Positions 44,455 through 59,929 are shown, counted from the stretch's first letter. The stretch: DNA of 64,000 nt from an uncultured Lachnospiraceae bacterium (GCA_964545675.1 CAZJGM010000001.1:2575-66574), one strand, 5' to 3'. A program made the numbers and translations. Notes: generated by a model not told the origin, from the sequence alone.

Positions 44455-45108
44455 ATGAGGCAATTAGATCAGGACAATTTAAAAAAAGACGAAAAACAAA
44501 GTTTTTATGGGACCGGCCTAATAATAGCCTTATTTTTGATTGGTTTTTTTTTGTTTTTATCATCACCATTGACAGCCTTTTACTGGCTAACGGGAATTAT
44601 TTTGGGCTATATTCTTCAACGATCACGCTTTTGTTTTACAGCTTCCTTAAGAGATCCTTACCTTACTGGGGGAACGGCCCTTAGTCAAGCGGTATTAATG
44701 GCCTTATTGCTGACAAGTAGTGGCTTTGCCTTGATAAAATATCTTTTTTTAATCAGTGGCCAAGCACTTCCGGGCCAAGACTATGTCCAAGCCATCGGCC
44801 TTAACACCCTTGTTGGTGGCCTTATGTTTGGGATTGGCATGGTGATAGCCAGTGGCTGTGCATCGGGCTTATTGATGCGCATTGGTGAAGGCTTTCAAAT
44901 TCAAATGCTGACCCTAGTCTTTTTTTTCTTTGGTTATTTGTTGGCGAGCCTAAAGCTTAAATGGTGGCAGGAAAACTTTATCATCCTTCCTGAGGGTCTT
45001 TTTCTCCCCGACCTGTTGACTTGGCCGGGGGCAATTTTTGTCCAGCTGGCGGTGATCGGAGCCCTCTATCGTTTGGCCATAAAGTGGGAGAAAAGCCATG
45101 AAGATTGA
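44455..45108 (+). CDS. YeeE/YedE sulfur transporter family protein, N-terminal half
   Basis: LQRSRFCFTASLRD and GGLMFGIGMVIASGCASG motifs, RIGEG. Confidence 0.88.
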   Translation: MRQLDQDNLKKDEKQSFYGTGLIIALFLIGFFLFLSSPLTAFYWLTGIILGYILQRSRFCFTASLRDPYLTGGTALSQAVLMALLLTSSGFALIKYLFLISGQALPGQDYVQAIGLNTLVGGLMFGIGMVIASGCASGLLMRIGEGFQIQMLTLVFFFFGYLLASLKLKWWQENFIILPEGLFLPDLLTWPGAIFVQLAVIGALYRLAIKWEKSHED

Positions 45109-45595
45109 TTTAAAAAAAATTAATCAAAAATACTTTAAGAAGGCTTGGACCTATATGACGGGGGCTGTTTTATTGTCGCTTGTGCAGATCATAACTCTGG
45201 TCGTAACCGGCCAGCCTTGGGGAATCACAGGGGCCTTCACCTATTGGAGTGAGCGAGTGCTTGACACCCTAGTAGGCATCTCTTACACTGGCAGGGTCTG
45301 GTTTTTAGAAAACCCCATATCAGTCCGAAATATCGGCATCATTATGGGAGCTTTGGTATCAACACTCCTAGCCGCTCAATTTCGCTTTAAAAAGATCAAG
45401 TCAGGCAAGCAGCTTGGGGGCGCAATTATCGGCGGCTTTTTAATGGGTTATGGATCACGGATTGCATCAGGTTGCAATATCGGGGCCTTCTATAGTAGCA
45501 TCTCATCGCTGTCCCTATCAGGTTGGGTCTTTGGCTTGGCTCTTTTGGGCGGCTCAATTATTGGGGGAAAATTATTGATAAAGTATTTTATCTGA
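45098..45595 (+). CDS. YeeE/YedE sulfur transporter family protein, C-terminal half
   Basis: PWGITG, GGFLMGYGSRIASGCNIG, SLSGW; own GGAG SD 7 nt before ATG. Confidence 0.88.
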   Translation: MKIDLKKINQKYFKKAWTYMTGAVLLSLVQIITLVVTGQPWGITGAFTYWSERVLDTLVGISYTGRVWFLENPISVRNIGIIMGALVSTLLAAQFRFKKIKSGKQLGGAIIGGFLMGYGSRIASGCNIGAFYSSISSLSLSGWVFGLALLGGSIIGGKLLIKYFI

Positions 45596-45671
45596 TAAAA
45601 ATTTAGGACGATCACTTGGGAATTATGTTAAGATAAAGTGACAATTAGAAATGGTAAGGAAGTGATAATTC

Positions 45672-46565
45672 TTGCATATCGAATATTTGGAAAATTTTTA
45701 TAAAGTCGCCACCGCTAAGAGTATCTCTAAGGTGGCAAAAGAGATTCATGTGTCTCAATCGGCTTTAAGTCAACAAATTTCAAAATTGGAAAATGATTTT
45801 AATGCAGTCTTGCTTGAGCGCAGCAATAAAGGGGTTGAGTTGACGGAAAAAGGAAAAATTGTCGTTCAATATGCTGAAAACATAGTTAGAACCTATAATA
45901 TGATGGTCGAAAAATTAGAGCAAAGTGATAATAATATCAGAGATATTAAAATTGAAGCTTTTTGGACCATTGCCAATTATTCCCTGCCGTGTGTGATGTA
46001 TAAGGTCAAAAAACGATTTCCACAAAATAATTATGAAATTAAATCCAATAAAGCACTGGAAATTGAAGATAATATCTTAAATAATATTTGTGATTTAGGG
46101 GTAATTTATGGAAAACCCAAAAGTCCTAAATTATCCTATTATAAAATTGGCATTGATAAACTGGTCTTAATTGCCATCGATGACTATCCGATCCCCGATC
46201 AGATCAAGCTGGAAGATTTAGCCCTTTACCCCTTGATTATGCTTAACGATAATATGGATTTAACGAAGATGATTTCTAAACGAATGCAGAAAATGGGAAA
46301 AGACCCCAAAGAACTTAATCTGATGTTTAAAAGTGATTCGGTTGAATCGGTAAAAGCTTCGGTATTGAATGAATTTGGGATTGGTTTTTTGCCCTATATC
46401 TCAATTAAGAAAGAATTATATAAAAAGCAACTTAAGATTATTGAAATTACCGATATGATTATCGAGTACGAGATGTATCTGATTTATGAAGAGACCATTA
46501 AAAACAAGGTTCTTAATGATTTTACCCGTTATTTTAAGGATATTGCCAGGAAAAGTTTGTGCTAA
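45672..46565 (+). CDS. LysR-family transcriptional regulator
   Basis: HTH SISKVAKEIHVSQSALSQQISKLE, LLERSNKGVELTEKG, C-terminal GIGFLP. Confidence 0.92.
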   Translation: MHIEYLENFYKVATAKSISKVAKEIHVSQSALSQQISKLENDFNAVLLERSNKGVELTEKGKIVVQYAENIVRTYNMMVEKLEQSDNNIRDIKIEAFWTIANYSLPCVMYKVKKRFPQNNYEIKSNKALEIEDNILNNICDLGVIYGKPKSPKLSYYKIGIDKLVLIAIDDYPIPDQIKLEDLALYPLIMLNDNMDLTKMISKRMQKMGKDPKELNLMFKSDSVESVKASVLNEFGIGFLPYISIKKELYKKQLKIIEITDMIIEYEMYLIYEETIKNKVLNDFTRYFKDIARKSLC

Positions 46566-46774
46566 GACTTGGTTAAAACGATTTCCCAAACACCGTTGAT
46601 CACTTCCTCTGAGCTGATCTGGTGGTTTTTAAATTTACTTGATAAAGACTCGAGAACACAGCTATGGTCGGTGATGATTTTAAGGCTTTGGCCTGTTTGA
46701 ATTTTTTTTAGTTCTTTTTGAGTTTTAAGAATTGGAATGGGACAGATATCCCCAAGACAATCGATTACTTTCAT
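46562..46774 (-). CDS. TusA/YeeD-family sulfur carrier protein
   Basis: IDCLGDICPIP (CPxP motif), 70 aa, KIITDHSC, GVWEI; AAGGAGG SD. Confidence 0.9.
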   Translation of the reverse strand: MKVIDCLGDICPIPILKTQKELKKIQTGQSLKIITDHSCVLESLSSKFKNHQISSEEVINGVWEIVLTKS

Positions 46775-46876
46775 AAGCGACCTCCTTAATTTTTTAATTA
46801 AAAGTATATCATAAATAATAAGGAAAAGATAAAGATATAATAGACAATATGAAATGGCATAGAAAAAGGGTGAAAA

Positions 46877-47551
46877 ATGGAAATAAGCATTGTTGTCCCT
46901 GTATATAATAGTAGTCGGTCGATTGAAGAACTGGTTAAGCGAATTATTAGGGTACTGGAAGAAAAAAAAATAAAGTTTGAAATCATCCTTGTCGATGATT
47001 GCTCAAAGGATGATTCGCTAAGGGTCCTTGAGAAAATAAAAGAAGAGGATTCGCGGGTCCTTGTTTTGCCACTTGAAAAAAACCAAGGACAGCAAGCCGC
47101 TACAAAGCAAGGAATGGCCCTAGCTAAGGGTCAGGCGATTGTAACCATTGATGACGATTTAGAGCAGCAACCCGAAGATATTCCCAAACTAATTGATGAA
47201 TTAAACAAGGGCTATGATGTCGTTTATGGGGTGATTAACCGTGAAAACTATCCCTTTTACCGTAAATGGGGCAGTCAGCTGGTCGATTTATTTTTCACCT
47301 ATTTTTTAGATAAACCGGCAGAAATACGGGTTGGCTGTTTTCGTATTTTAAAGCGAAAAATTAGTGACCAGATTATTAAGGACCAGACCCCCTTTGTTTA
47401 TATCACGGCCATTAGCTTAATCGTTACTAAGAATATTGGAAACGTCGGGGTGAGCCACCAAGACCGGCAATATGGGCGGTCAAATTATAATTTTAAAAAG
47501 CTAATAAAGCTTTTTTTTAACTTGTTTTATTATTATCGAAAGGCAATTTAA
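46877..47551 (+). CDS. Glycosyltransferase family 2, polyprenyl-phosphate glycosyltransferase (GtrB/ArnC-like, short form)
   Basis: SIVVPVYN, ILVDDCSKD, NQGQQAA, TIDDDL, GYDVVYG, RQYGRSNY; ends before the usual C-terminal TMs. Confidence 0.85.
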   Translation: MEISIVVPVYNSSRSIEELVKRIIRVLEEKKIKFEIILVDDCSKDDSLRVLEKIKEEDSRVLVLPLEKNQGQQAATKQGMALAKGQAIVTIDDDLEQQPEDIPKLIDELNKGYDVVYGVINRENYPFYRKWGSQLVDLFFTYFLDKPAEIRVGCFRILKRKISDQIIKDQTPFVYITAISLIVTKNIGNVGVSHQDRQYGRSNYNFKKLIKLFFNLFYYYRKAI

Positions 47552-47552
47552 G

Positions 47553-48764
47553 ATGCGAATACAAATTTTAGGTGGCGGAAACAACCAATTAAATGCCATT
47601 ATCCGAGCAAAAGAAAAAGGCCATCAAGTGCTTTTATGCGATTATTATCAAGACCCACCAGGCCGAACCTATGCTGATTTCAACGAGCAGGTCAGCACCT
47701 TTGATGTCGAGGCCAATATAGCGGTGGCAAAAGCCTATCAAGTCGATGGCATTATGACCATTGGGACTGATCAGCCAGTTTATACAGTTGCTTGTGTAGC
47801 AGACAAACAAAAGCTAGCTCGGTTTTTAGATGTTGACACAGCCGCAGCAGTGACCAATAAAGAAAAGATGAAGATGGTTTTTGCAAAAGGGGGAATCCCG
47901 TCGCCTCGGCATCTTTTTATTGGTAAAGAGGCAGTGGAAGCCGATTTACAAGGCCTTCGTTTTCCAGTCGTGTTAAAACCAGTCGATAGCCAAGGACAAA
48001 GAGGGGTCTTTAAATTAAAGTCAGCCAAAGACGTGATTAGCCACCTTGACCAAAGCCTAAGTTTTTCCAGAGAGGCGATTGCCTTAGTGGAAGAGTACTA
48101 TCAAAGTGATGAATTAACGGTATCGGCTTGGCTTAAGGATGGACGAGCCAGAATTTTGACCATTACCGACCGCCTAAGTATTAATATGGACAAGCATATC
48201 GGGATTTGCTATGCCCATGAATTTCCTTCAAAACATAGGGATTCCTATGACCAAATAAAAGATCTAATTGATGCCATTAGTCGGGCCTTTGCCATTAAAA
48301 ATGGTCCCTTGTATGTGCAATTGTTGGTCGGTCAAGCGGGGATCTTAGTCAATGAAGTGGCCTGTCGCATCGGTGGGGCCTATGAAGATATTTTTATCCC
48401 TTATTTGACCGGTTTTGATATTTTAGATGCGGTCATTGATTATTCCTTAGGGCTTGTTCCATCGCTAGAAATGCATGATCCTTTAGATAAATGGGTATCG
48501 GTTCAATTATTTTTTGCTCGCCCCGGAAGGGTCAAGGACTTAAGCCCAATTGAGAGCCTTAAAAAGTGTCCCGGTGTTATCGGTGGCGGTTATAATATTA
48601 GCAAAGATCAAACGATTGAAAGCATTAATAATGCCACGGCCAGGGCTGGTTATTTGGTAATTACCGGAGACAGCCAAGAAGAGTTAAAAATAAATCGCAA
48701 GCGGGTCTTTAGCCAATTGAAAATTATGAATGAAAAGGGTGAAAATCTTTTGCTTAACTTTTAA
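47553..48764 (+). CDS. ATP-grasp domain protein (amide ligase of unknown substrate)
   Basis: ILGGGNNQ, TNKEKMK, FPVVLKPVDSQGQRGV, LVEEY, NEVACRIGG. Confidence 0.85.
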   Translation: MRIQILGGGNNQLNAIIRAKEKGHQVLLCDYYQDPPGRTYADFNEQVSTFDVEANIAVAKAYQVDGIMTIGTDQPVYTVACVADKQKLARFLDVDTAAAVTNKEKMKMVFAKGGIPSPRHLFIGKEAVEADLQGLRFPVVLKPVDSQGQRGVFKLKSAKDVISHLDQSLSFSREAIALVEEYYQSDELTVSAWLKDGRARILTITDRLSINMDKHIGICYAHEFPSKHRDSYDQIKDLIDAISRAFAIKNGPLYVQLLVGQAGILVNEVACRIGGAYEDIFIPYLTGFDILDAVIDYSLGLVPSLEMHDPLDKWVSVQLFFARPGRVKDLSPIESLKKCPGVIGGGYNISKDQTIESINNATARAGYLVITGDSQEELKINRKRVFSQLKIMNEKGENLLLNF

Positions 48765-48843
48765 TAGAAATAAAAAGGGCAAAAATCTTTTGCTTAATTA
48801 TTAATAGAAATAAAAAGGTCAAAATTTTTTGCTTAACCTTTAA
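48731..48843. repeat. 40-bp tandem repeat, about 2.8 copies, spanning the ATP-grasp stop codon
   Basis: Units at 48731, 48771, 48811 with consensus TAAAAAGGGCAAAAATCTTTTGCTTAAYTWTTAATAGAAA. Confidence 0.85.
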
Positions 48844-48876
48844 GGACACGATTAAAAAATAAAAGAGGACTGAAAA

Positions 48877-49824
48877 ATGAAAAAATTAGGAATTATCATT
48901 ATTTGTTTATTTATGTTAACGGGCTGTGCGAGCGAAAAAAGCCAAACGGAGATTCGGATAGCCGAACAATATGGCATTGCCTATGCACCGGTTCAAATTA
49001 TGCGTGATCAGAAATTTTTAGAAAAAAATGCCCCTGATGCCCAGGTCACTTGGGAGCAGATGGCAAACACGGCAGCCATCCGAGAAGCCATGATATCGGA
49101 TCATCTGGATATCGGCTTTATGGCCATACCCCCTTTTTTAATTGGTTGGGATAATGGCATGGATTGGAAAATTGCCACTGGCCTTTCATCGGTCCCAGTC
49201 GGCTTAGTTGGCAACAAGGAAATCGGCTCATTAGCCGATATTGGCAGTGATGATCGGATCGCCCTTCCCCAACCGGGGAGTGTCCAGCATATTCTCCTAG
49301 CCATGGCCTGCCAAAAAGAATTTAATGATCCCCAGAAAATGGATAATCAACTGGTGACCTTGTCGCATCCTGATGGAATGAATGTCTTATTGGCGGGAAA
49401 TGAAATAGCGGCCCACTTTACTTCGACTCCTTACTTGGAGTTGGAATTGGAAGATGAGAAAATGCACAAAATCCTCGATGGCAAAGAGGCTTTTGGCGGT
49501 GATTTTAGTTTTATCGTTGGCGTTAGCACTAGAACATTCCATGATGACTATCCCTTGCTCTATGAAAAATTTAATCAATCCTTAGCCCAAGCCATTGCCT
49601 TTATAGAGGAATCCCCCGAAGAGGCGGCTAGCATCTTGACAAATTATTACGATCTGCCCAAGGAAGAGATACTTGCTTATTTAAGTTCGCCAGGAGTCGT
49701 CTATGATACTGGGGTAAGGGGGACCCGGCAGTTTTCTGATTTTATGACCGAGACCAATTATTTAAATAAATCCTATGGCCAGGCGAGTGACATTTTCTGG
49801 GAAAACACCAAGCATGAAGACTAG
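48877..49824 (+). CDS. NitT/TauT-family ABC transporter substrate-binding lipoprotein
   Basis: Lipobox LTGC; IRIAEQYGIAYAP, RIALPQPGSVQH, LSHPDG, AHFTSTPY; adjacent NitT-type permease and ATPase. Confidence 0.85.
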   Translation: MKKLGIIIICLFMLTGCASEKSQTEIRIAEQYGIAYAPVQIMRDQKFLEKNAPDAQVTWEQMANTAAIREAMISDHLDIGFMAIPPFLIGWDNGMDWKIATGLSSVPVGLVGNKEIGSLADIGSDDRIALPQPGSVQHILLAMACQKEFNDPQKMDNQLVTLSHPDGMNVLLAGNEIAAHFTSTPYLELELEDEKMHKILDGKEAFGGDFSFIVGVSTRTFHDDYPLLYEKFNQSLAQAIAFIEESPEEAASILTNYYDLPKEEILAYLSSPGVVYDTGVRGTRQFSDFMTETNYLNKSYGQASDIFWENTKHED

Positions 49825-50596
49825 GTCTTTGCTTAAAAAACCACGTTCAAAATACTTTTGGATTTTGATTATGCTAGTTGGCTGGGAACTAATTGCCCGC
49901 TTTTCAAGGGTGAGTCCCTTAGCCTTTCCCTCCTTAGAAGCCATTGGGGGCTCGCTTTTACAAGCGATAATGACTGGGGAAATTATTAATCAAATGTTAT
50001 TTTCCTTAGGCTTAATTCTTTTAGGAATTGCTATTGGCTTAGTCCTAGCAGTCTTACTGGCGTCGCTTTCGGTGGTCAGTCCCTTGGTTGAGAGTTTTGT
50101 TGATACCTGTGTCTCGATTTTTCATCCCCTACCGGGAATTGCCCTCCTGCCCTTGATCATTCTTTGGATTGGGACTGGCAGTAAAGCGATTTTATTTGTC
50201 ATCGTTCATTCGGTCTTATGGCCAATGATTTTAAATATGATTGCTGGTTTTAAAGCCATCCCCCTAATCTATAAAAAAGTTGCCCGTAATTATGAATTTA
50301 ACTTAATTGAAATTATTTTTAAAATTTATATACCAGCAGCCCTGCCCTATTTGCTTGCCGGTCTTAAAATTGGCTGGGCCAGAGCGTGGCGGGCGACAAT
50401 TAGTGCCGAAATGATCTTTGGGGCAACAGGCGGGATCGGGGGGATTGGTTGGTATATCTTTAATAAGCGAGTCTTTATGGATACGCCAGGAATTTTCGCC
50501 GGATTGGTAATGATTATTATCGTGGGAATTTTGGTTGAAGATTATATCTTTGCCAAGATTGAAAAGAATACCGTTAAAAAGTGGGGCCTATCATGA
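49814..50596 (+). CDS. NitT/TauT-family ABC transporter permease
   Basis: HPLPGIALLPL, IPAALPY, GWARAWRATISAEM. Confidence 0.88.
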   Translation: MKTRSLLKKPRSKYFWILIMLVGWELIARFSRVSPLAFPSLEAIGGSLLQAIMTGEIINQMLFSLGLILLGIAIGLVLAVLLASLSVVSPLVESFVDTCVSIFHPLPGIALLPLIILWIGTGSKAILFVIVHSVLWPMILNMIAGFKAIPLIYKKVARNYEFNLIEIIFKIYIPAALPYLLAGLKIGWARAWRATISAEMIFGATGGIGGIGWYIFNKRVFMDTPGIFAGLVMIIIVGILVEDYIFAKIEKNTVKKWGLS

Positions 50597-51309
50597 GTGA
50601 AATAATTACTATTTCTAATCTTTCAAAAGTCTATGAAAAGCGATCAATCCTTAAAAACATTGATCTCCAGATTGAAAAAGGCGAATTTATTTGCATCATT
50701 GGCCCATCAGGCTGTGGGAAAAGCACCTTGCTTAATTTAATTGGTGGTTTTTTAGAAAATGATGGGGGGTCAGTTAAGATTAAAGGCCAGGTCGTTGAAA
50801 AACCAAACCGCCAGTGTATTATGGTCTTTCAAGAATTTGATCAACTTTTCCCTTGGAAAACAGTTAAAAAAAATGTCGCTTTTCCCCTGCAAAAAAGTCA
50901 TCATGCCAATAATAAGAAAGACATTGAAGCCTTAGCCAGACATTATTTAAAAATGGTTAAGCTAGAGGAGTTTTTGGATTTTTATCCCCACCAGCTATCC
51001 GGGGGAATGAAGCAACGCTGTGCTATTGCTCGGGCTTTGGTGACAACGCCGGAGGTTTTATTAATGGATGAACCCTTTGGAAGCCTCGATATTCAGACAA
51101 AAAAGGAACAGCAAGACATCTTATTGGCCATTTGGAAAAAAACCCAGACGACGATTTTATTTGTGACTCACGATGTCAGAGAAGCCCTTAATCTGGCTGA
51201 CCGGATTATTATTCTCGGTGACGGTCAGCTTAAAAGCATTATTGATAACAAGGACAAAGACAAGTACGATCAAAAAATGACCCAGATTATTGGTTTTATG
51301 GCAAATTAG
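50593..51309 (+). CDS. NitT/TauT-family ABC transporter ATP-binding protein
   Basis: [43 protein letters not shown]. Confidence 0.9.
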
Positions 51310-51310
51310 G

Positions 51311-52870
51311 CTATTTTACCTGATAAACAATAACCTGCCAGGGTTTTTGATCGATTAGGTCAGCCAGATTGGTCCCATAAGTTGAATTATTAAAGCGATC
51401 AACTTCCTGACATTCAGCCTTAAGAAAGGCCTTGATTTCTGGCAGGAGGTCATTTAAGTTGCCGTACATAACATTGTAGGAGGGACTATTAGCAACGATA
51501 TAATCGAATTCATCGTAGTAGAAGATATAATCAATTTCCCTAGAATGGATATAGTCAGCAAAAGTTAGCTCTTGGTATTGGAGATAGTCGAGGTTACGAT
51601 AAGCTAAAAGATTGCCATTTTCAAAGAAATACTCACTATTAAGATTAGCCAATACCCGGTCGTCCTTAGTGACCGACTTGGCGATGGCACCAAGATAGTC
51701 CTCGTAGCTATAGGCATAAGAGGGAATAAAAAAGATAGTGTTAAGGACAAGCATGAGAATTAAAAGGCTCAAGGCTTGTCTTTTTTTATTTAAATTTTGA
51801 AGCCATGAAACACTGAGTAAGTACATAAAGGGAAAAATAAAGATGATACTGGTGACATTAAAGCGACCAATAAGAAAGATGCCCAAATTAATCCCAAGAA
51901 CCAAGACCAGCAGGGCGTTTACCTTAGAAAACCCTGCTTTAGGTGTTTTTTTAAAGAAAGAAAGAAGGCTGACTAAAAAGACCAAGGCGAATAAGAGCAA
52001 TTGGAATTTAATTTGTGGTAGATAGTATTCAGAGCTGCGGCCCAGAAAAATATTTTTATAGAAATTTAAAAAGTCAGAGACTTTACTTAAGAATCCATTA
52101 AAGACTCCAAAATTTTTCCCATGCTCAAAATAATGAGAAAGATAAAATGGGTCCATAAATAGGCTAATTCCGACAAAAATAAGGGCAAAAAGAAAAATAA
52201 TAGCGATTAAAATAAAAAGATTTTTTGAATGAATGCTGTTTTTATGGATATAAAAGAGATAGACCAGTCCAATTGCTATGGCAATGATAAAACTGTTCGG
52301 ATGAACCCCGATAGAAAGGCCGATAATAAGACCAATTTTGATATCTTGGTAGTAATCATGATGATCAATCCCTTGGATTAACAAATAGCTTGAAAAAACA
52401 AGGGCAAATAAGATGATAATTTCCTGACGGGCCAAATGGCTGGCATAAAGGAATTGAAGATCGATTGAGACTAAAATCGTTGCAAACAAAGAAAGTTTAT
52501 CACTTTTCAAGATGATTTTAGACAAGCGATAGAAAAGGAATAAGGTGGCAAGGGAAAAAAATAAGGATAATAAACGAAAAGAAAAAATACGGTAACCAAA
52601 AATTTTAATAAAAACGACTTGAAGAAGATGGAATAATAATTTAATGGCATGGGGGTTGCGGCCATAGACATCAAAAAAAGGTTCGGTCACGCTAATATCG
52701 CCAGACATTAAGATGTTTCGTGATAAGCCACTCAGCCAGGATTCATCAGAGTGGATATAGGGGAAAGCAGTAAGAAAAATAAGGTTGATTAAAAAGTAAA
52801 AACTAAGATAAAGAATAATCTGATTTTGGGGGTGGGTGATTTTTTTTATAAAGGTCATAAAAGGCTCCAT
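51311..52870 (-). CDS. GT-C fold membrane glycosyltransferase (ArnT/PMT-like, GT83/GT39 type)
   Basis: HSDE motif after first TM, FRLLSL, SHLARQE, VHPN, many TM helices and a C-terminal soluble domain. Confidence 0.75.
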   Translation of the reverse strand: MEPFMTFIKKITHPQNQIILYLSFYFLINLIFLTAFPYIHSDESWLSGLSRNILMSGDISVTEPFFDVYGRNPHAIKLLFHLLQVVFIKIFGYRIFSFRLLSLFFSLATLFLFYRLSKIILKSDKLSLFATILVSIDLQFLYASHLARQEIIILFALVFSSYLLIQGIDHHDYYQDIKIGLIIGLSIGVHPNSFIIAIAIGLVYLFYIHKNSIHSKNLFILIAIIFLFALIFVGISLFMDPFYLSHYFEHGKNFGVFNGFLSKVSDFLNFYKNIFLGRSSEYYLPQIKFQLLLFALVFLVSLLSFFKKTPKAGFSKVNALLVLVLGINLGIFLIGRFNVTSIIFIFPFMYLLSVSWLQNLNKKRQALSLLILMLVLNTIFFIPSYAYSYEDYLGAIAKSVTKDDRVLANLNSEYFFENGNLLAYRNLDYLQYQELTFADYIHSREIDYIFYYDEFDYIVANSPSYNVMYGNLNDLLPEIKAFLKAECQEVDRFNNSTYGTNLADLIDQKPWQVIVYQVK

Positions 52871-52930
52871 TAGATAATTATTATAATCGAGTATACCATA
52901 AGCAAGAGCGACTTTATTAAAAATTTGGCT

Positions 52931-52993
52931 ATTAGAATTTATAATACAGGATAATAAAGTTTAAGAACAAGCTTTAGAATTGTCTGTTATAAT
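52931..52993 (+). promoter_or_regulatory. Putative LysR-activated promoter of rhodanese-yeeE-cdr operon
   Basis: Dyad ATTA-N7-TAAT (T-N11-A) at 52931-52945, related ATAA-N7-TAAG at 52951-52965, extended -10 TGtTATAAT at 52985-52993, no consensus -35. Confidence 0.5.
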
Positions 52994-53031
52994 GTTGTTA
53001 AATAAATAATTAACAAACGGAGGAAAAGAAA

Positions 53032-53991
53032 ATGTTAAAGAAAACACGTCTATTGGTATTGTTGGCTGTTTTATTATCGGTAGTGACCCTAAGTGCCTGC
53101 AACACAGGGACGACAGAGCCTACTGATGGGGCAGAAGAAGTACCAGAAACAGAACAAGGCACAGAAAGCTCAGCAGTAGAAGATGCAGCTAATGATTATT
53201 TTGCAAATATGAACGAAGATATTTACAAAATTAATCAAAAAGATTTTATCGATAAGGTAAAGGCTGGCGAAGAAATGACAATTCTTGATATCAGAAGTGC
53301 TGATTCCTACGCCGAAGGACATATTAAAGGAGCAGTTAGTCTACCATGGGGACCCGATCTTGGCAAAAGCCTAAGCAGTATCCCCGACGATAAGCCAGTA
53401 ATGCTTTATTGTGTGACTGGACAAACAGCCGGTCAAACGGTTGCCCTTTTAAGTATGGCAGGCTTTGATGCAAAATCAGTTAACCTCGGTTGGGACCTTG
53501 GTATTAAAAAAGTTGAAGGTGTCGAAGAAGTCATTACGACTGAAGTTACTGAATTTGATCCAGCGACAATGACAGAAATCGATCCTGACCTTGAAGCAGC
53601 AATTATTGACTACTATGCTGGTCTTAAAGATGTCGCTGATACCGTTTATAAAAATTATAAAATTAGCGAAGAAGATGCTAAAGCAGCCCTCGATGCTAAG
53701 GATGAGTCAGTGGTCTTCTTAGATGTTAGAAAACCAGATGACTTTGCCGCCGGTCATATTGAAGGAGCTGTTAATATTCCCTTTGGAAAAGGTATGCAAG
53801 AAGAGTTTTCTAGCTTGCCAATGGATAAAACGATTATCGTTTACTGCTACACCGGTCAAACGGCTGGTCAAACAGTAGCAGGCCTAAGAATGCTTGGCTA
53901 TGATGCCGTTTCTCTTAACTCAGGAACTGGCATGGATGCAACTGGAACAGCGGGTTGGGTTAATTTAGGCTACCCCTTAGTAACCGAATAA
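53032..53991 (+). CDS. Tandem rhodanese-domain lipoprotein
   Basis: Lipobox LSAC; two repeats with LDIR..GHIKGA..YCVTGQTAGQ and LDVR..GHIEGA..YCYTGQTAGQ; GGAGG SD. Confidence 0.9.
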   Translation: MLKKTRLLVLLAVLLSVVTLSACNTGTTEPTDGAEEVPETEQGTESSAVEDAANDYFANMNEDIYKINQKDFIDKVKAGEEMTILDIRSADSYAEGHIKGAVSLPWGPDLGKSLSSIPDDKPVMLYCVTGQTAGQTVALLSMAGFDAKSVNLGWDLGIKKVEGVEEVITTEVTEFDPATMTEIDPDLEAAIIDYYAGLKDVADTVYKNYKISEEDAKAALDAKDESVVFLDVRKPDDFAAGHIEGAVNIPFGKGMQEEFSSLPMDKTIIVYCYTGQTAGQTVAGLRMLGYDAVSLNSGTGMDATGTAGWVNLGYPLVTE

Positions 53992-54023
53992 TTATTAGGC
54001 ATGCAGAAGTAATTGGATGATTA

Positions 54024-54057
54024 AAGAAAGTGACATTTTATAAAATGTCACTTTCTT
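54024..54057. terminator. Perfect 34-bp palindrome between rhodanese and yeeE (terminator, stabiliser or operator)
   Basis: AAGAAAGTGACATTTTA|TAAAATGTCACTTTCTT. Confidence 0.6.
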
Positions 54058-54092
54058 GTGAGTTTAAATTAAACTTTTAAAAGGAGAAAAGG

Positions 54093-55349
54093 ATGGATTT
54101 GACAAAAAGCCAAAAGATTCAACCACTTATCGGCTTAGGTCTTTTAGTTGCCATTGCGGTATTTGCAGCCTATAAAAGTATGCTTGACCAAGAATTGGCC
54201 TTATTTTTAATAACTGGTTTGGCACTGGGCTATATTCTAACCCGGGCACGATTTGGCTTTGCCGGTGGTGTCAAGCGGATTTATATAACCGGTGAAGGAA
54301 GCCTGAGTACAGCACTTCTGGTTATGTTTGCGATTTCAATGGTTATGGCAGCCGGGATTCAATGGGCGGCGGCTAGAAATGGAATGGATTTACCGGGGCT
54401 TAGCTCCGTCAAGTTTTTAAATATTACGGTGATGATTGGCGGTTTTATCTTTGGTATCGGGATGATGCTTGCGGGTGGTTGTGCCTCGGGAACCTTAAGT
54501 GACTTAGGCGAAGGAGAAGGCCATGCCTTAATTGGCATTACGACCTTTATCCTCGGATCCCTCCCTGGTATTGTCGTTCAGGATGCCCTTAATCAAACAG
54601 CGATTGGGAAAATTGGTATTCAATTATATTTACCCGATGTCTTTGGTTATGTCGGATCATTGGCTATTTCATTTCTGCTTCTTTTTATTTTATATATTAT
54701 CGTTCGCAAGTATGAAGATTTCCGGAGAAAAGAAGGCTTTTATCAAGAAGTCGTCTATGAAGACCACGAATTACCAAGAGGCAAAAATAAAGATTTTAAA
54801 TTGTTTTCTTATGACACCTTTCACCGCTTATTTGTCCAACGATGGAGTTTTATGGTCGGTGGGATTCTCCTAGCCATTGCCTTTGCCTTTATTTTGATTA
54901 CAACTGGCCATAGCTGGGGTGTAACCGGACCCTTTGCCAGCTGGGGGATTGCCTTCTTACAAATGTTTGGCTTTGACTTTACGGCACCGGTTTTTGAACC
55001 CTATGTATGGACAGCTAACAATGGTATTCTGAATGATGCTGGGTCATTACGAAACTTTGGTATTGTTTTTGGGGCGATGATTGCTTTTCTTTTTGCCGGA
55101 CGCTTATCAACCAAGTTTAATTTTACACTCCGAAATGTGTCATACTATCTTATTGGTGGATTTCTAATGGGTTTTGGGGCACGTCTAGGTGGTGGTTGTA
55201 ATATTGGGGCATTGTTCTCAGGTATCGGTAACTTTTCAATATCAGGTTGGGGTTTCTTTATCGCCATAACCCTTGGCGGGATTGTCGGCTTGAAGTTATT
55301 TGCCGGTAAGGTGGATATTATCCCTCCCGATCGTCATTCAAAAGGGTAA
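54093..55349 (+). CDS. YeeE/YedE family sulfur transporter, full length
   Basis: TRARFGFAGG, GGFIFGIGMMLAGGCASG, SWGVTG, GGFLMGFGARLGGGCNIG. Confidence 0.9.
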   Translation: MDLTKSQKIQPLIGLGLLVAIAVFAAYKSMLDQELALFLITGLALGYILTRARFGFAGGVKRIYITGEGSLSTALLVMFAISMVMAAGIQWAAARNGMDLPGLSSVKFLNITVMIGGFIFGIGMMLAGGCASGTLSDLGEGEGHALIGITTFILGSLPGIVVQDALNQTAIGKIGIQLYLPDVFGYVGSLAISFLLLFILYIIVRKYEDFRRKEGFYQEVVYEDHELPRGKNKDFKLFSYDTFHRLFVQRWSFMVGGILLAIAFAFILITTGHSWGVTGPFASWGIAFLQMFGFDFTAPVFEPYVWTANNGILNDAGSLRNFGIVFGAMIAFLFAGRLSTKFNFTLRNVSYYLIGGFLMGFGARLGGGCNIGALFSGIGNFSISGWGFFIAITLGGIVGLKLFAGKVDIIPPDRHSKG

Positions 55350-55402
55350 AGGATTTTTAAAACGTTAATAAAATGATAGAAAATAAATCAAAGGAGAGAA
55401 TA

Positions 55403-57100
55403 ATGGGAAGAAAAGTATTAATAATTGGTGGTGTTGCAGGTGGTGCGTCTGTTGCGGCTAGGCTTCGACGCTTAGACGAATCAGCTCGGATTATCATGTT
55501 TGAAAAAGGGCCGGATGTTTCTTTTTCAAACTGCTGCTTACCCAATCATTTAAGCGGCATGATTGCCGAGAGTGAAGACCTGATCTTAATGGGACCACCG
55601 AGTTTTAAAGACCAATATAATATTGAAGCACGGGTCAATAATGAGGTTTTAGCCATTAATTCCGACGAGAAAACAATTGAAGTCCGCAATTTAATAACGG
55701 GCGAAGAATATATCGAATCTTATGATATCTTAGTCCTTTCACCAGGGGCAACACCAATTGTGCCACAAATAGAAGGCTATGACCGACCCAATGTCTTTAC
55801 CATTAAAAATGTTGTTGATATCGATCGGTTAAATCGTTTTATTCAAAACGGGGTGAAGGACATTGTTGTCGTAGGCGGTGGCTTTATCGGGGTTGAAGTG
55901 GCTGAAAACCTAGTCCTGGCCAATAAAGGCTTTAAAGTAACCTTGATCGAAATGAGTGATCAAATTATGCGGACCTTTGACTATGATATGGCTCAAATTC
56001 TCCATAAGGAAATGATGGACAAGGGTGTTGATGTTATAGTAGGTGACGGCATTGCCAAGGTTGGCGATGGTTACGTCGAAGTGGCTTCTGGCAAACGAAT
56101 CAATGCTCAAGCTGTCGTTATGGCCATTGGTGTCCGCCCAGGAACCCAACTCGCAAAAAAAGCCGATTTAAAAATTGGCGAAACGGGTGGAATTTTAGTT
56201 AATCATAATTATGAGACCAGTAAAAAAGATATTTACGCCGTTGGTGATGCTATTGAAGTCTTTAATCAATTAACCCGGTCTAAAATTCGTTTGGCCTTAG
56301 CTGGCCCGGCCCAAAGACAAGCCAGAGCAGCAGCTGGTCATATGTGTGGGATCCCCCATCGCAATACCGGCGTTATCGGGTCATCAGCCATAAAAGTCTT
56401 TGATATGAATGCAGCCTCAACCGGTTTAACCGAAAGGGAGGCCGAGAAAGATGGGATCCCTCACGATTCTGTTTACATTATCCCCGGTGATTATGTCGGG
56501 ATTATGCCGGGAAGTAGTCCGATCTTCTTAAAACTCGTTTTTGAAGAACCAACCGGACGAATCCTTGGAGCCCAAGCTATTAGTAAGGGAGATTCTGTTA
56601 AACGAATCGATGTCTTAGCAACCATGGTTATGTTAGGTGGAACCCTTGAGGATTTAAAAGAATTAGAACTTTGCTATGCACCAGCCTTTTCTACTGCCAA
56701 AGACCCGGTTAACTTTGCCGCTCTTGTTGGTTTAAATATTCTTAACCGAGAATATAAACAGGTTCCGGTGACCATGGTCCGTGAATTGGTGGAAAATGAT
56801 GCCTTTATCATCGATGCCCGTGAACCCCATGAGTATGAAAAATCGCACCTGCTCAATTCTGTTAATATTCCACTTAGCGAATTTAGGGACCGTCTTGATG
56901 AAATTCCCAAAGACCAACCGGTTTATATCCATTGCCGAAGCGGCCAGCGCAGTTACAATATGGTCCGGGCACTGGGCCAATTAGGTTTTGATAATATTTA
57001 TAATATTTCTGGATCATTCCTAGGGGTGTGTTATTATGAGTATTTCAATGATCAAACGACGGATCGAAAAGCAATTGTTACCGATTATAATTTTGAATAA
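55403..57100 (+). CDS. CoA-disulfide/persulfide reductase with C-terminal rhodanese domain (CoADR-RHD / Npsr-like)
   Basis: IIGGVAGGAS, redox motif SFSNCCLP, VVGGGFIGVE, YAVGD, LELCYAP, rhodanese loop HCRSGQRS; AAGGAG SD before ATG 55403. Confidence 0.88.
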   Translation: MGRKVLIIGGVAGGASVAARLRRLDESARIIMFEKGPDVSFSNCCLPNHLSGMIAESEDLILMGPPSFKDQYNIEARVNNEVLAINSDEKTIEVRNLITGEEYIESYDILVLSPGATPIVPQIEGYDRPNVFTIKNVVDIDRLNRFIQNGVKDIVVVGGGFIGVEVAENLVLANKGFKVTLIEMSDQIMRTFDYDMAQILHKEMMDKGVDVIVGDGIAKVGDGYVEVASGKRINAQAVVMAIGVRPGTQLAKKADLKIGETGGILVNHNYETSKKDIYAVGDAIEVFNQLTRSKIRLALAGPAQRQARAAAGHMCGIPHRNTGVIGSSAIKVFDMNAASTGLTEREAEKDGIPHDSVYIIPGDYVGIMPGSSPIFLKLVFEEPTGRILGAQAISKGDSVKRIDVLATMVMLGGTLEDLKELELCYAPAFSTAKDPVNFAALVGLNILNREYKQVPVTMVRELVENDAFIIDAREPHEYEKSHLLNSVNIPLSEFRDRLDEIPKDQPVYIHCRSGQRSYNMVRALGQLGFDNIYNISGSFLGVCYYEYFNDQTTDRKAIVTDYNFE

Positions 57101-57121
57101 AGAAAAAGTATAAGTAGTAAT

Positions 57122-57187
57122 AGAGAGGGGGGCGCAGATAAAGAGAATCGATAATGATCGATGTCCTTTTTATCTAGCCTCTCTTTT
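57122..57187 (+). terminator. Long imperfect hairpin after CoADR-RHD gene
   Basis: AGAGAGG/CCTCTCT outer stem, AGATAAA/TTTATCT middle stem, ATCGAT-aatg-ATCGAT apex, followed by T-tract. Confidence 0.55.
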
Positions 57188-57236: not shown

Positions 57237-57251
57237 AGAGAAAAAGGAGCA

Positions 57252-58043
57252 TTGATGCTAGCAGATAAGAAAAAAAATAGTTTAAATAATCGAATATTGA
57301 CCATTGGCACATGGAGTGGGATTATTTTACTATGGTTTATTATTACTAAGTTTGAGATTGTCTCACCATTGATTGTTCCCTCGCCTTTAATGGTTTATCA
57401 AACCTTTGTAAGTATTCTTCAAAATGGCTACAATGGGCTAAGCCTATGGTCACATCTTGGCATTAGTTTTTACCGCTTGATCGTGGCTTCACTATTGGCG
57501 ATTATTACGGCAATTCCCCTTGGCTTATTAAGTGGCTACTTTGAAAAAGTACGAGCCATCGTTGATTCAATTGTCCAATTTTACCGGCCCCTACCCCCAC
57601 TTGCTTATTACGTTGTCCTTATTTTATGGCTAGGCATTGATGAATCCTCTAAAATTACCCTCCTTTATTTAGCAGCCTTTGCCCCGATTTATGTTTCTTG
57701 CGTATCGGCGGTCAATAATATTAACCAGGATTATATCCTTAGTGCAAAATCATTGGGGGCTGACCAACGGGAGGTTTTTTTAAACATTGTTATGCCAGCC
57801 TGTCTGCCGGATATTTTTACCAGCATCCGAACGGCTATTGGGATTGCCTATACAACCTTGGTGTCAGCTGAAATGGTCGCAGCCTCATCGGGCATTGGCT
57901 GGATGGTCATTGACGCATCGCGCTATTTAAAAAGTAGCGTGATCTTTGTCGGTATTATTGTGATGGGCATTACCGGTGTATTGATTGACTTAAGTTTACG
58001 AATGATGGAAAATAAAATTGTATTTTGGAAAGGATACCAATAG
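57252..58043 (+). CDS. tauC: Taurine/sulfonate-type ABC transporter permease (TauC-like)
   Basis: FYRPLPPLAYY..LILWLGIDESSKI.LLYLAAFAP, TTLVSAEMVAASSGIGWM. Confidence 0.8.
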   Translation: MMLADKKKNSLNNRILTIGTWSGIILLWFIITKFEIVSPLIVPSPLMVYQTFVSILQNGYNGLSLWSHLGISFYRLIVASLLAIITAIPLGLLSGYFEKVRAIVDSIVQFYRPLPPLAYYVVLILWLGIDESSKITLLYLAAFAPIYVSCVSAVNNINQDYILSAKSLGADQREVFLNIVMPACLPDIFTSIRTAIGIAYTTLVSAEMVAASSGIGWMVIDASRYLKSSVIFVGIIVMGITGVLIDLSLRMMENKIVFWKGYQ

Positions 58044-58051
58044 GTGACAAG

Positions 58052-59098
58052 ATGAATAAAATAATCAAGAAAATAATTCTGGCAGTGGTCATGGTCTTAC
58101 TGCTAAGCCCCTTAGTCGGCTGTCAAAGCGAAAAAGCAGATGGTGATTTTGATGGTGATTTACCCCAAGTAATAAATATTGGCTATTTACGGGTCCCCAA
58201 TGATGAAATGGTCGCTAAGACAATGGGAATATTTGATGATTACTTTAGCAAAAAAGGAATAGAATGTAATTTTGTTGTTTTTGATTCTGGAGTTGATGCC
58301 AATAAGGCCTTGGCCTCAAATTCTATCGACTTTGCCACCATGGGTAATACTAACGGAATTATAGCCTTTTCCCGTGGCTTAGATGTTGAGCTGATCTGGA
58401 TTCACGAGGTCCTTGGTCAGATTGAGGGCCTAGCCGTTAAAAACGGTTCAAACATTAATAGTGCCGAGGATTTAAGGGGAAAAAGAATAGCCACGCCCTT
58501 TGCCAGCACTTCTCATTATAGCCTTCTTAATTATTTAAAAAATGCGGGGATTGAAGAGGATGTCGAGCTTCTCGATATGCTTACAGCCGATATTGTCGCA
58601 GCTTGGGAGCGAGGCGATATTGAAGCAGCCTATACCTGGCAGCCAACCCTCGGCCAATTGTTAGAAAATGGCAGAACCCTTGTCAATTCCGAGGAGATGG
58701 CTAAAAAAGGCAACCTAACGGCCAATGTATGTTTGGTTCGTAAAGGCTTTTCAAAGGACTATCCAGAAGTGGTTGCCGATTTTATAAGGGTCTTAAGTGA
58801 AGGTGGCGATGCCTACCGAAATAATCCTCAGGAAAGTGCCCAAGCCGTTGCCAAAGAACTGGAGATTACTAAAGAAGAGGCCTTGATCCAGATGGAAGGG
58901 TCAAGATGGCTGACACCTAAAGAGATGGTCTCAAGTGACTTTATGGGAAGCTCAACTCAGGCCGGGGCCTTTTCCAATGTGATGAAAGACACCGCTGATT
59001 TTTTAGCAGGCGAAAAGTCAATTGATTTTGTTCCGACCCAAGAAGAGTTTGATGCCTTTATTAATCCCACCTACATTGAAATGACACTGGAAAATTGA
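58052..59098 (+). CDS. tauA: Taurine/sulfonate-type ABC transporter substrate-binding lipoprotein (TauA-like)
   Basis: Lipobox LVGC; FDSGVD, GKRIATPFASTSHYSL, IVAAWERGDIEAAYTWQP resemble TauA motifs. Confidence 0.78.
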   Translation: MNKIIKKIILAVVMVLLLSPLVGCQSEKADGDFDGDLPQVINIGYLRVPNDEMVAKTMGIFDDYFSKKGIECNFVVFDSGVDANKALASNSIDFATMGNTNGIIAFSRGLDVELIWIHEVLGQIEGLAVKNGSNINSAEDLRGKRIATPFASTSHYSLLNYLKNAGIEEDVELLDMLTADIVAAWERGDIEAAYTWQPTLGQLLENGRTLVNSEEMAKKGNLTANVCLVRKGFSKDYPEVVADFIRVLSEGGDAYRNNPQESAQAVAKELEITKEEALIQMEGSRWLTPKEMVSSDFMGSSTQAGAFSNVMKDTADFLAGEKSIDFVPTQEEFDAFINPTYIEMTLEN

Positions 59099-59883: not shown

Positions 59884-59929
59884 GTAAATAAAATGAAGAT
59901 GACAAAATTAAGTCTTGTGAGGATTGTTT

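Follow-up and report, generated by a model that had tools for sequence, protein, structure and literature searches.

A gene island of Lachnospiraceae and distant relatives pairs predicted amino sugar glycosylation genes with a secreted rhodanese

Introduction

Six adjacent genes (46877..52870) in a 64,000-nucleotide stretch of DNA from an uncultured Lachnospiraceae bacterium (the window) encode a GT2 glycosyltransferase, an ATP-grasp ligase, a NitT/TauT-type importer, and a GT-C glycosyltransferase. They raise the question of what these proteins make together, and what the product is for. The initial annotation read them, along with wecE, as a generic envelope modification in which Arn-like chemistry yields an amino sugar that is acylated with an imported acid. 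This framing omits the steadier partner, a secreted rhodanese accompanied by YeeE, TusA, and a persulfide reductase. The six genes and wecE are part of a larger, 17-gene island (44455-61063; Table 1). Its sugar arm comprises wecE, an ArnC-like GT2, the ATP-grasp ligase, the NitT/TauT importer, and GT-C. Its sulfur arm comprises a two-site rhodanese lipoprotein, two YeeE transporters, tusA, a CoA-disulfide/persulfide reductase, a taurine-type ABC importer, and a LysR regulator.

Structure of the island

Re-examination confirmed the coordinates of the GT2, ATP-grasp, importer, and GT-C genes, the 1 nt gap between GT2 and ATP-grasp, and the convergence of GT-C with the importer, where the GT-C stop lies 1 nt from the ATPase stop. 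The gap between ATP-grasp and the substrate-binding protein (SBP) gene is 112 nt. The sulfur genes on either side are part of this island, and tusA had been overlooked. As had been claimed, no flippase, WecD, or rmlAB is encoded nearby, at least among the 19 ORFs scanned for families from 44455 to 63862. For rmlAB, tblastn agrees for the window as a whole, and a search of the genome places rmlA and rmlB on another contig (C16). That contig also carries a weak ArnE/F-like flippase pair (22.7-26.7 bits vs a cut-off of 92); the GtrA, SMR, and DedA families had no match in the genome.

Table 1. Features of the island, in window coordinates
Position	Strand	Feature	Basis
44455..45108	+	YeeE/TsuA-type sulfur transporter, N-terminal half; RFCF and GCAS cysteines	PF04143, conserved cysteine motifs, synteny
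45098..45595	+	YeeE/TsuA-type transporter, C-terminal half; GCNI cysteine	PF04143, cysteine motif
45672..46565	+	LysR regulator of the island, putative activator	Family search; 33/38 loci
46562..46774	-	TusA/YeeD-like sulfur carrier, 70 aa	TusA/YedF/TsuB models, all below cut-off
46877..47551	+	ArnC-like GT2, predicted polyprenol-phosphate glycosyltransferase, no transmembrane helix	Families, structure-profile match
47553..48764	+	ATP-grasp ligase with LAL_C2; E268/R272 kept; invariant Cys219	Families, alignment
48877..49824	+	NitT/TauT-type substrate-binding lipoprotein SBP1, TauA/SsuA fold	Fold and family search
49775..50596	+	ABC permease	PF00528
50581..51309	+	ABC ATPase	PF00005
51311..52870	-	GT-C glycosyltransferase; invariant H40-S-D42-E43 and five invariant His	Family, alignment, model pLDDT 94
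52930..53016	+	Divergent promoter region	Inverted repeat, -10, Rex-like box
53032..53991	+	Secreted two-domain rhodanese lipoprotein; CxTGQTA loops in both domains (Cys127, Cys272)	Family, alignment
54093..55349	+	Full-length YeeE, two of the three cysteines	Family, motif counts
55373..57100	+	CoA-disulfide reductase-rhodanese fusion, predicted NAD(P)H persulfide reductase	TIGR03385 426 bits, below 578.8
57252..59883	+	Taurine-type ABC importer: permease 57252-58043, SBP 58025-59098, ATPase 59095-59883	TauA/TauC best models, below cut-off
59924..61063	+	WecE dTDP-4-amino-4,6-dideoxyhexose transaminase	Family score above cut-off

Distribution and linkage

The arrangement of these genes is not due to chance, as it is kept across the order and the phylum sample. 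Of 401 phylum genomes, 14 have GT-C, and exactly the same 14 have a close rhodanese orthologue (E <= 2e-119); the alignment behind the rhodanese query held rows from 9 of these genomes and none from the other 5. Within the order, the ATP-grasp orthologue and the rhodanese each occur in 25 of 102 genomes, with 23 genomes having both, and the 4 discordant genomes are fragmented drafts. Among 38 deduplicated GT-C loci with at least 7 kb on both sides, the rhodanese is the steadiest partner (36), followed by ATP-grasp (35), GT2 (34), LysR (33), YeeE (32), wecE (31), and the importer (31). In 19 control loci built around distant ATP-grasp homologues, wecE is present in 16, and GT-C, rhodanese, and YeeE in none. 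The linkage persists in distant lineages even where segments are inverted, genes reshuffled, or partners exchanged (CoADR vs TrxR, ABC vs DASS). GT-C is present without the island in two loci (L118, L111).

Island records come from both Eubacteriales and Spirochaetales. Since these Eubacteriales are presumably monoderms without LPS, lipid A is unlikely to be the common acceptor.

Enzymes of the sugar arm

The assignment of WecE is clear at the family level (TIGR02379, 611 bits vs a cut-off of 434.85; also above the PRK11706 cut-off of 375), and the same protein misses the ArnB threshold (193 bits vs 631). Its gene lies directly upstream of GT2 in many relatives. The GT2 protein belongs to PF00535; its best NCBIfam model is ArnC (137 bits vs a cut-off of 529), and ArnC is also the nearest solved structure to its profile (E 2.6e-52), with GtrB behind (3e-40). 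In five relatives, GT2 and ATP-grasp form one fused protein. The sugar-arm genes are all under purifying selection (dN/dS 0.04-0.46, mostly < 0.3; seven pairs from the window's genus).

The ligase combines ATP-grasp_4 and LAL_C2 domains, and its catalytic E268 and R272 are invariant in 63 aligned sequences. Cys219 is likewise invariant, and capsule-type and distant homologues carry Glu at the same place. The corresponding residue of BacD, Glu273, reportedly binds the alpha-amino group of the donor in L-amino-acid ligation. The closest described enzymes, namely L-amino-acid ligases (RizA/RhiM, BacD, BL00235) and capsule-cluster ATP-grasp enzymes, share the domain pair and the E-x-x-x-R-x-G-G catalytic motif, for which PMC13579937 describes the roles of Arg and Glu. 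They differ in that the island's Cys219 replaces the Glu of FVEMGH, a motif that 7 of the 25 distant homologues compared retain, and in that the island enzyme is fused to GT2 in relatives and probably acts on a sugar amine. RhiC relies on Y208/E258 instead of the BacD-type Glu.

Profile classification places GT-C in PMT_2. Its model has the OST/ArnT/DPY19 fold and matches ArnT, STT3, and DPY19, and D42/E43, which we take to be equivalent to the DE motif of known GT-C enzymes, are invariant in 84 sequences. The best E-values in the fold search belong to STT3 protein glycosyltransferases, with ArnT eighth, all at 10-15% identity. Compared with GT-C enzymes of protein O- and N-glycosylation (bacterial Pmt, STT3/AglB, TfpO), the island shares the fold, an extracytoplasmic C-terminal domain, and a predicted lipid-phosphate donor. 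It differs in this low identity, in having no recognised sequon, and in a donor predicted to be a single acylated amino sugar dedicated to a sulfur island.

The earlier proposal of Arn-like chemistry is supported by the nearness of GT2 to ArnC, the GT-C fold, the fusions, and ArnE/F-like genes, which lie directly upstream of GT2 inside the island in three other loci (L005, L006, L154), though not in the window's own island. As in the Arn pathway (ArnB/ArnA/ArnC/ArnD/ArnEF/ArnT; L-Ara4N on lipid A), there are an aminotransferase, predicted N-acylation, an ArnC-like GT2 predicted to act on polyprenol phosphate, flippase-like genes in some loci, and a GT-C with a DE motif. In contrast, the island has WecE/dTDP rather than ArnB/UDP-Ara, an ATP-grasp ligase in place of the ArnA formyltransferase, and a GT2 without TM helices; it is found in monoderms, tied to rhodanese and YeeE, and includes an importer. 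Neither an ArnA formyltransferase/decarboxylase nor an ArnD deformylase was found among the 19 ORFs scanned or the conserved neighbours, and the lack of an ArnD-like gene suggests that the acyl group is probably kept.

The importer

SBP1 is NMT1_2/SsuA-like, below cut-off (73.6 vs 163.5 bits), and its top folds are TauA/SsuA (TM 0.73-0.75, 18-20% identity). The proposed role in precursor supply holds in part. Within the order, 24 of 25 island genomes carry the importer, as against none of the remaining 77 genomes. However, it is missing from six island genomes (G788, G572, G359, G309, G454, and G334; 77-99% complete); the initial annotation had named such an absence of the ABC genes as grounds for refutation, and its reading is to that extent refuted. 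Some of these six use a DASS carrier, and such a carrier lies in the loci L069, L139, L142, and L157.

The sulfur arm and its regulation

The window contains YeeE (PF04143) with conserved cysteines beside a TusA/YeeD-like protein, as described for TsuA-TsuB (YeeE-YeeD) thiosulfate uptake (PMC11073785). Both proteins miss the equivalog cut-offs (TsuA 51-71 vs 400 bits; TsuB 18.8 vs 147.5). Unlike that system, the island also has two YeeE transporters, one split and one full-length, and adds secreted rhodanese lipoproteins, a persulfide reductase, Rex-like boxes, and a glycosylation arm. It is probably an electron sink rather than serving assimilation alone. A search of this genome did not find asrC, which occurs in 12 of the 25 island genomes.

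A further 16, more distant CxTG-type rhodaneses occur in genomes without a GT-C match. Of 15 of them, six adjoin genes of ~730-770 aa (the two checked are both molybdopterin reductases), three adjoin YeeE, and several adjoin multiheme cytochromes. This type of enzyme can therefore work without the sugar arm.

The GT-C/rhodanese intergenic region contains a conserved inverted repeat (52930-52946), a putative LysR-type box, followed by a -10 TATAAT (52988-52993) and a Rex-like box (52995-53016). Rex control predicts a box of the TTGTTA-N6-TAAC type, a consensus checked against PMC5886521, downstream of the -10. Rex-like boxes occur in 41 of 83 such regions vs 1.6 expected in dinucleotide shuffles. 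None lies upstream of wecE (0/36) or GT2 (0/20). The window's box has three mismatches to the 14-base consensus in standard register, or can be read as perfect half-sites 8 bp apart. This genome has a rex gene, and one of the four best sites lies just upstream of it.

Expression in Halanaerobium

RdlA of H. congolense (Ravot 2005) reportedly belongs with rhodanese-dependent thiosulfate reduction by fermenters. For Halanaerobium WG8, two rhodaneses used as queries in PMC5497025, Ga0073283_11115 and _11116, are the TST and CxTGQTA lipoproteins of this island, and both increase when thiosulfate is supplied; the Results section and the other passages covered from that paper mention no neighbouring sugar genes, YeeE, or CoADR. 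Its Table S3 gives raw, un-normalised counts, in which tags other than 11115 and 11116 were assigned by gene order because the sequence column is misaligned. Without and with thiosulfate, respectively, these are 87,97,80 and 126,136,118 for the rhodanese, 171,171,157 and 220,234,217 for the reductase, 2,1,2 and 1,1,1 for ATP-grasp, and 3,3,5 and 4,5,3 for SBP1; GT-C has 1,1,2 without thiosulfate and none with it. The sulfur arm is thus abundant (80-230) and increases 1.3-1.6x, whereas the sugar enzymes (1-6) and the importer are scarce and flat. The importer's match to the sugar enzymes fits precursor supply, and a low level of modifying enzymes next to a plentiful lipoprotein inherited along with them is easier to reconcile with protein modification than with a bulk polymer.

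Proposed pathway and alternatives

Our favoured reading, held tentatively and with somewhat less than even confidence, is that the six genes build a lipid-carried N-acylated 4-amino-4,6-dideoxyhexose, which is moved onto a secreted rhodanese serving a predicted NADH-driven reduction of thiosulfate or sulfane sulfur. RmlA and RmlB would supply dTDP-4-keto-6-deoxyglucose for amination by WecE, as its family membership suggests. The ATP-grasp ligase would N-acylate the amine with a small organic anion, probably lacking an alpha-amino group and probably sulfur-bearing (a thiol- or sulfonate-carboxylate), which may be imported by the NitT/TauT transporter, or by the DASS carrier in other lineages. 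GT2 would then load the sugar on polyprenol phosphate, the ArnE/F-like pair would flip it, and GT-C, judged by its modelled fold, would transfer it to an acceptor outside the membrane. There, the rhodanese would take sulfane sulfur from thiosulfate or polysulfide, YeeE and TusA would pass it inward, and the CoA-disulfide reductase-rhodanese (TrxR-Trx in other loci) would reduce it to sulfide. Families, promoter boxes, and the published proteome suggest LysR and Rex control of the sulfur pathway.

The rhodanese lipoprotein is the favoured candidate acceptor. In the alignment, no clear sequon parts GT-C-linked rhodaneses from others; the sole S/T/N candidate, Thr204 (34/38 linked vs 3/15 others), may be structural. 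This would suit a membrane lipid or wall polymer as acceptor, which is possible but less probable. The membrane-tethered thiol- or sulfonate-bearing sugar would either take sulfur from the rhodanese outside the cell, in the way of a mycothiol or bacillithiol placed at the surface, or shield the surface from reactive sulfur. A rhodanese working outside the cell requires a thiophilic acceptor, and monoderms lack a periplasm that could retain a soluble one, which also favours this reading. The invariant Cys219, together with the sulfonate-type fold of the SBP, suggests that the acyl group may carry sulfur, and the GT-C fold, with ArnT among its matches, is common to lipid- and protein-modifying enzymes. 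However, the top matches are STT3 enzymes, and the low, uninduced sugar-enzyme counts are small for a bulk pool.

It is improbable that the ligase merely replaces ArnA, adding formate or acetate in the manner of PurT to an ordinary envelope amino sugar, with the ABC transporter as a separate importer of sulfur compounds and two arms that simply travel together. ArnC does accept an N-formylated sugar, PurT is among the ligase's structural relatives, and the sugar arm is uninduced and without Rex boxes. Nevertheless, PurT scores 33 bits vs 60-131 for LAL-type enzymes, the linkage outlives rearrangement and partner swaps, GT-C and close rhodanese agree in 14/14 genomes, SBP1 abundance tracks the sugar arm rather than the sulfur arm, and a related Cys-type ATP-grasp adjoins a TAXI-TRAP importer (L073).

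An acceptor in the C-terminal D-x-S tail of a second, TST/MST-type secreted rhodanese is similarly improbable, although pilin (TfpO/PilO) offers a precedent for glycosylation of a C-terminal Ser. The D/N-x-S ending is seen in 62 of 63 distinct TST lipoproteins, the exception being truncated at a contig end; three loci without TST (L089, L091, L123) have a CxTGQTA rhodanese with a G-D-x-S tail. However, TST was found in only 3 of the order's 102 genomes, and 22 of the 25 island genomes, among them the single-contig G002, G038, G048, G050, and G061, gave no match to it. In this genome, the rhodanese is tail-less, no other island protein ends in D/N-x-S, and GT-C is intact and under purifying selection, which rules out the tail as sole acceptor in this lineage.

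Selenium handling (YedE/YedF/LysR-Se type) with a selenosugar product is rejected as very remote: LysR, YeeE, and TusA have their best NCBIfam matches among selenium-associated models, though none reaches its cut-off, and selA/selB lie upstream in L089, but a search for selD found it in just 11 of the 25 island genomes and neither in this one nor in single-contig G027, G038, and G050, and the rhodanese active sites shown have Cys, not Sec.

Implications

If our favoured pathway is correct, it would tie glycosylation to bacterial sulfide production, a link of which no description was found in the literature. A more specific and rather unlikely version is that the acyl amino sugar, made with an imported mercapto-acid, is a thiol-bearing swinging arm that a dedicated GT-C attaches to secreted rhodaneses or the membrane, and which would accept sulfane sulfur from thiosulfate or polysulfide and hand it to YeeE. 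Were this swinging arm real, fermentative anaerobes would dispose of surplus NADH as sulfide, controlled by Rex, and the sugar would be the first cell-surface glycan with a cofactor role in redox or sulfur-transfer chemistry.

Composition of the island

The six open reading frames, strands and both 1-nt gaps described in the initial annotation hold, and they form part of a larger conserved island that joins a sugar arm to a sulfur arm. Pfam and NCBIfam confirm the GT2, the NitT/TauT-type ABC importer and the ATP-grasp enzyme, which carries a LAL_C2 domain, and class the GT-C as PMT_2-type. The sulfur arm includes a tusA of 70 aa that was at first overlooked. Rfam detected no riboswitch in the window, matching only five tRNAs, and a generic promoter and terminator scan yielded nothing informative. 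Downstream of the tRNA genes is a run that we take to be tilS-hpt-ftsH-like.

Coordinates of the island and of other features in the window and in homologous loci fetched for comparison (L-numbers)
Feature	Sequence	Position	Content
Island	Window	44455-61063	split YeeE, LysR, tusA, GT2, ATP-grasp, ABC, GT-C, rhodanese lipoprotein, full YeeE, CoA-disulfide reductase-rhodanese (CoADR), taurine-type ABC, wecE
wecE	Window	59924-61063	score above family cut-off
CxTGQTA rhodanese	Window	53032-53991	weak match to NCBIfam NF045521 'rhoda_near_glyco' (61 vs 145 bits)
40-bp repeat	Window	48729-48843	2.9 copies, 84% matches, probably a local duplication; begins in 3' end of ATP-grasp gene, covers most of spacer before SBP1
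tRNA genes	Window	38181-38634	five, consecutive, ordinary
ArnE/F-like pair	L101 (window's genome, G000, contig C16)	2-2269	follows unannotated 522-aa membrane protein resembling another GT-C; at end of rmlAB polysaccharide cluster
Separate sugar cluster	L073	1518-13602	rmlA, rmlC-like, rmlB, two wecE-like, GT2, PglD-like acetyltransferase, Cys-type ATP-grasp (35% identical), then TAXI-TRAP importer; GT-C and rhodanese absent from the 13.7-kb contig
Molybdopterin reductase	L091	1-4022	PsrABC/PhsABC-type, with NrfD subunit and chaperone, directly adjoins island
Molybdopterin reductase	L123	336-4672	as in L091
Extended CxTGQTA rhodanese	L089	10981-12042	no TST; Pro/Ala/Ser-rich extension ending G-D-x-S
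Extended CxTGQTA rhodanese	L091	7888-8934	as in L089
Extended CxTGQTA rhodanese	L123	8673-9683	as in L089
selA/selB	L089		upstream of island
ParE/Phd toxin-antitoxin pair	L069	5085-5652	inserted between island's DASS gene and tusA

Linkage and distribution

One conserved island was recovered across the order and class (49 ATP-grasp matches), the phylum (13 GT-C matches), three Spirochaetales records and 80 out of the 174 GT-C loci from metagenomes. Gene order and partners differ among lineages, yet the linkage persists. In the deduplicated set of 38 GT-C loci that have 7 kb or more of flank on each side, 36 contain the CxTGQTA rhodanese, 35 ATP-grasp, 34 GT2, 33 LysR, 32 YeeE, and 31 each wecE and the importer's binding lipoprotein (SBP1); TusA and a second, TST-type rhodanese (TST) each occur in 29, TrxR-Trx in 16 and CoADR in 9, part of the misses being edge or labelling effects. 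Control loci built on ATP-grasp homologues of 27-35% identity (n=19) have wecE in 16 and GT-C, rhodanese and YeeE in none. The GT-C also stands alone, outside the island, in L118 and L111.

Genome profiles agree with this linkage. Within the order, 25 of 102 genomes carry an ATP-grasp orthologue (E < 1e-100, 44-100% identity; six further matches at 28-30% identity fall outside this set) and 25 carry the rhodanese, 23 being common to both. The four discordant genomes are in 200-270 contigs, and in two of them a contig end falls inside the island. In a sample of 401 genomes of the phylum, the GT-C occurs in 14, exactly those with the rhodanese at E <= 2e-119; nine of these supplied rows of the query alignment and five none. 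As counter-evidence, a more distant rhodanese occurs without the GT-C in 16 genomes of this sample. At the 15 such loci fetched (G815, with a partial distant rhodanese, being left out), the neighbours are molybdopterin reductases, multiheme cytochromes or YeeE/TusA/LysR. Distant CxTG-type tandem rhodaneses adjoin c7-type multiheme cytochromes, with no sugar arm, in L191, L192, L194, L196 and L199 (neighbours checked in L191, L192, L196 and L199), and L191 also has Res/Ccs assembly genes nearby.

All sugar-arm genes have dN/dS well below 1 in seven pairs from the window's genus. Judging by the names of the organisms from which GT-C homologues come, Acetobacterium/Eubacteriaceae are close relatives, and the island is present in acetogens (Acetobacterium-named homologues), Desulfitobacterium and spirochaetes.

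Enzymes of the sugar arm

Profile comparison places the GT2 closest to ArnC (E 2.6e-52), followed by GtrB and DPM synthase; a C-terminal hydrophobic helix occurs in only 3 of 77 members. GT2 and ATP-grasp are fused in L007, L058, L060, L061 and P0242; a search for longer ATP-grasp fusions contributed one of these and no acyl-supplying domain. In P0242, an Alkalispirochaeta record, the GT2 domain is interrupted close to its end by about 300 residues of GGNHE-type repeats.

The ATP-grasp profile is nearest to 4DIM and the L-amino-acid ligases, with PurT distant. Its Cys219 is invariant, and the same position holds the Glu of FVEMGH in seven of the 25 displayed distant homologues. In BacD this Glu presumably binds the alpha-amine of the donor; judged from sequence, its replacement by Cys may mean that the donor is not an amino acid. 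E268 and R272 are also invariant, in line with what PMC13579937 and PMC9486568 lead one to expect of an active ligase.

The GT-C model (pLDDT 94) matches STT3, ArnT, DPY19 and ALG12 at 10-15% identity, and its H40-S-D42-E43 is invariant. Single-sequence PDB searches with the SBP and GT-C gave no match; relatives emerged only via profiles and folds.

Sugar supply and flippases

The genome search for rmlAB and a flippase proposed in the initial annotation succeeded for the sugar genes, with rmlB (over cut-off) and rmlA on contig C16, and only in part for the flippase. The genome is 100% complete by markers, in 192 contigs; no dedicated flippase of the GtrA, SMR or DedA families was found in it. 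C16 also bears a weakly matching ArnE/F-like pair, which together with its GT-C-like neighbour could possibly represent a second Arn-like system or a shared flippase. Elsewhere, ArnE/F-like genes directly precede the GT2 in L005, L006 and L154.

The importer

SBP1 has the fold of TauA/SsuA (TM about 0.75, 18-20% identity), which gives no ligand, and its ESM Atlas relatives fall only in NitT/TauT, sulfonate and taurine clusters, none with a ligand. Within the order, SBP1 occurs in 24 of the 25 genomes with the ATP-grasp orthologue and in none of the other 77. The initial annotation had made the importer part of the pathway, a reading that absence of the ABC genes from homologous clusters would undermine. 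SBP1 was not found in six genomes whose sugar arm is otherwise retained (G788, G572, G359, G309, G454 and G334; 77-99% complete), and the importer is rejected as an essential part. A DASS carrier occurs in L069, L139, L142 and L157. The initial reading is therefore refuted in part, but the ABC/DASS/TAXI-TRAP pattern looks like a set of replaceable anion importers.

The sulfur arm and its regulation

The rhodanese has two active loops with a Cys in each. The cysteines of YeeE and TusA are conserved, as in the YeeE-YeeD thiosulfate route described in PMC11073785. The arm would constitute a candidate route from thiosulfate to sulfide, in which an external rhodanese would pass sulfur to YeeE/TusA and on to a persulfide reductase. 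Of the 25 island genomes, 12 have asrC. A selenium reading is rejected, as selD is present in only 11 of the 25 and not in the window's genome. The name of NF045521 suggests that rhodanese and glycosyltransferase are linked in another lineage too.

In the intergenic region between GT-C and rhodanese, an 18-bp palindrome follows the -10 element at a distance of a few bases. Rex-like boxes with at most two mismatches occur in 41 of 83 distinct regions of this kind, against 1.6 in dinucleotide shuffles, the consensus used agreeing with that in PMC5886521. Such boxes also lie upstream of YeeE (14/52) and LysR (12/60), and none was found upstream of wecE (0/36) or GT2 (0/20). The box of the window itself takes a variant form, with three mismatches or, read differently, perfect half-sites 8 bp apart, and is the only site of the latter kind in its genome. 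That genome has rex, with a one-mismatch Rex-like box just upstream of it. The candidate sulfide route would be under Rex/LysR control.

Expression in Halanaerobium

Booker et al. (PMC5497025) report that thiosulfate serves Halanaerobium WG8 as an electron sink, and the rhodaneses blamed for thiosulfate-dependent souring by Halanaerobium in fractured shale are those of the island. Island proteins are present in the proteome table of that study (Table S3), which does not list the GT2. In this crosstab the row labels and the Sequence column are out of register, and reuse by sequence gives wrong counts.

Raw counts of island proteins in the WG8 proteome, three without and three with thiosulfate (PMC5497025; inferred tags follow the gene order of near-identical L178/L179)
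Protein	Without	With	Tag
Rhodanese (300 aa)	87,97,80	126,136,118	11116 (Table S2)
TST (306 aa)	41,47,39	68,74,64	11115 (Table S2)
Reductase	171,171,157	220,234,217	inferred
TauA	57,52,49	70,71,61	inferred
YeeE	18,16,11	21,26,22	inferred
WecE	5,6,4	4,5,5	inferred
ATP-grasp	2,1,2	1,1,1	inferred
SBP1	3,3,5	4,5,3	inferred
GT-C	1,1,2	none	inferred

In these data the sulfur arm is abundant and responsive and the sugar arm scarce and flat, in agreement with the promoter analysis. SBP1 falls on the sugar-arm side of this split.

The acceptor of the sugar

The CxTGQTA rhodanese is the likeliest acceptor of the GT-C, with a chance that we put at slightly under even; it ranks first because it is the one extracytoplasmic protein that tracks the GT-C almost everywhere. 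Neither a sequon nor a D-x-S motif was found in its linker, and Thr204 is a weak candidate site, proposed from the protein sequence. A lipid or polymer, placed below the rhodanese in this ranking, is a rather unlikely acceptor. The TST tail ends in D/N-x-S in 62 of 63 cases, and the D-x-S-type tail is a movable signal, of the same type on TST and the CxTGQTA rhodanese. As sole acceptor this tail is rejected for the window's lineage, since TST turned up in no more than 3 of the order's 102 genomes and the island of the window's genome has no such tail, though its GT-C is intact and under selection.

Relation to known systems and significance

The chemistry of the sugar arm would work like that of the Arn pathway. 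The island differs in having WecE for ArnB, in lacking ArnA and ArnD, and in containing no flippase, and is therefore not a member of that pathway. No description of the island was found in searches of an open-access library, and subscription papers, including the RdlA paper, may bear on this. Each half resembles something known, namely Arn-type sugar transfer and YeeE/rhodanese sulfur handling; no described system was found that unites them. Genomics demonstrates the coupling, and the analysis establishes the island's composition and linkage, the folds, the selection and the motif enrichment; we infer the mechanism, with each of its reactions, the acyl group, the acceptor and a possible electron-sink role in the window's organism.

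To our knowledge, the conversion of thiosulfate to sulfide in fermenters without Phs or Dsr is poorly explained, and the island would offer a full candidate route for it. With the route goes a putative sugar modification, kept under purifying selection and open to testing. Three further outcomes are a new family of GT-C enzymes, a subfamily of ATP-grasp enzymes marked by an invariant Cys, and a binding protein that is an orphan.
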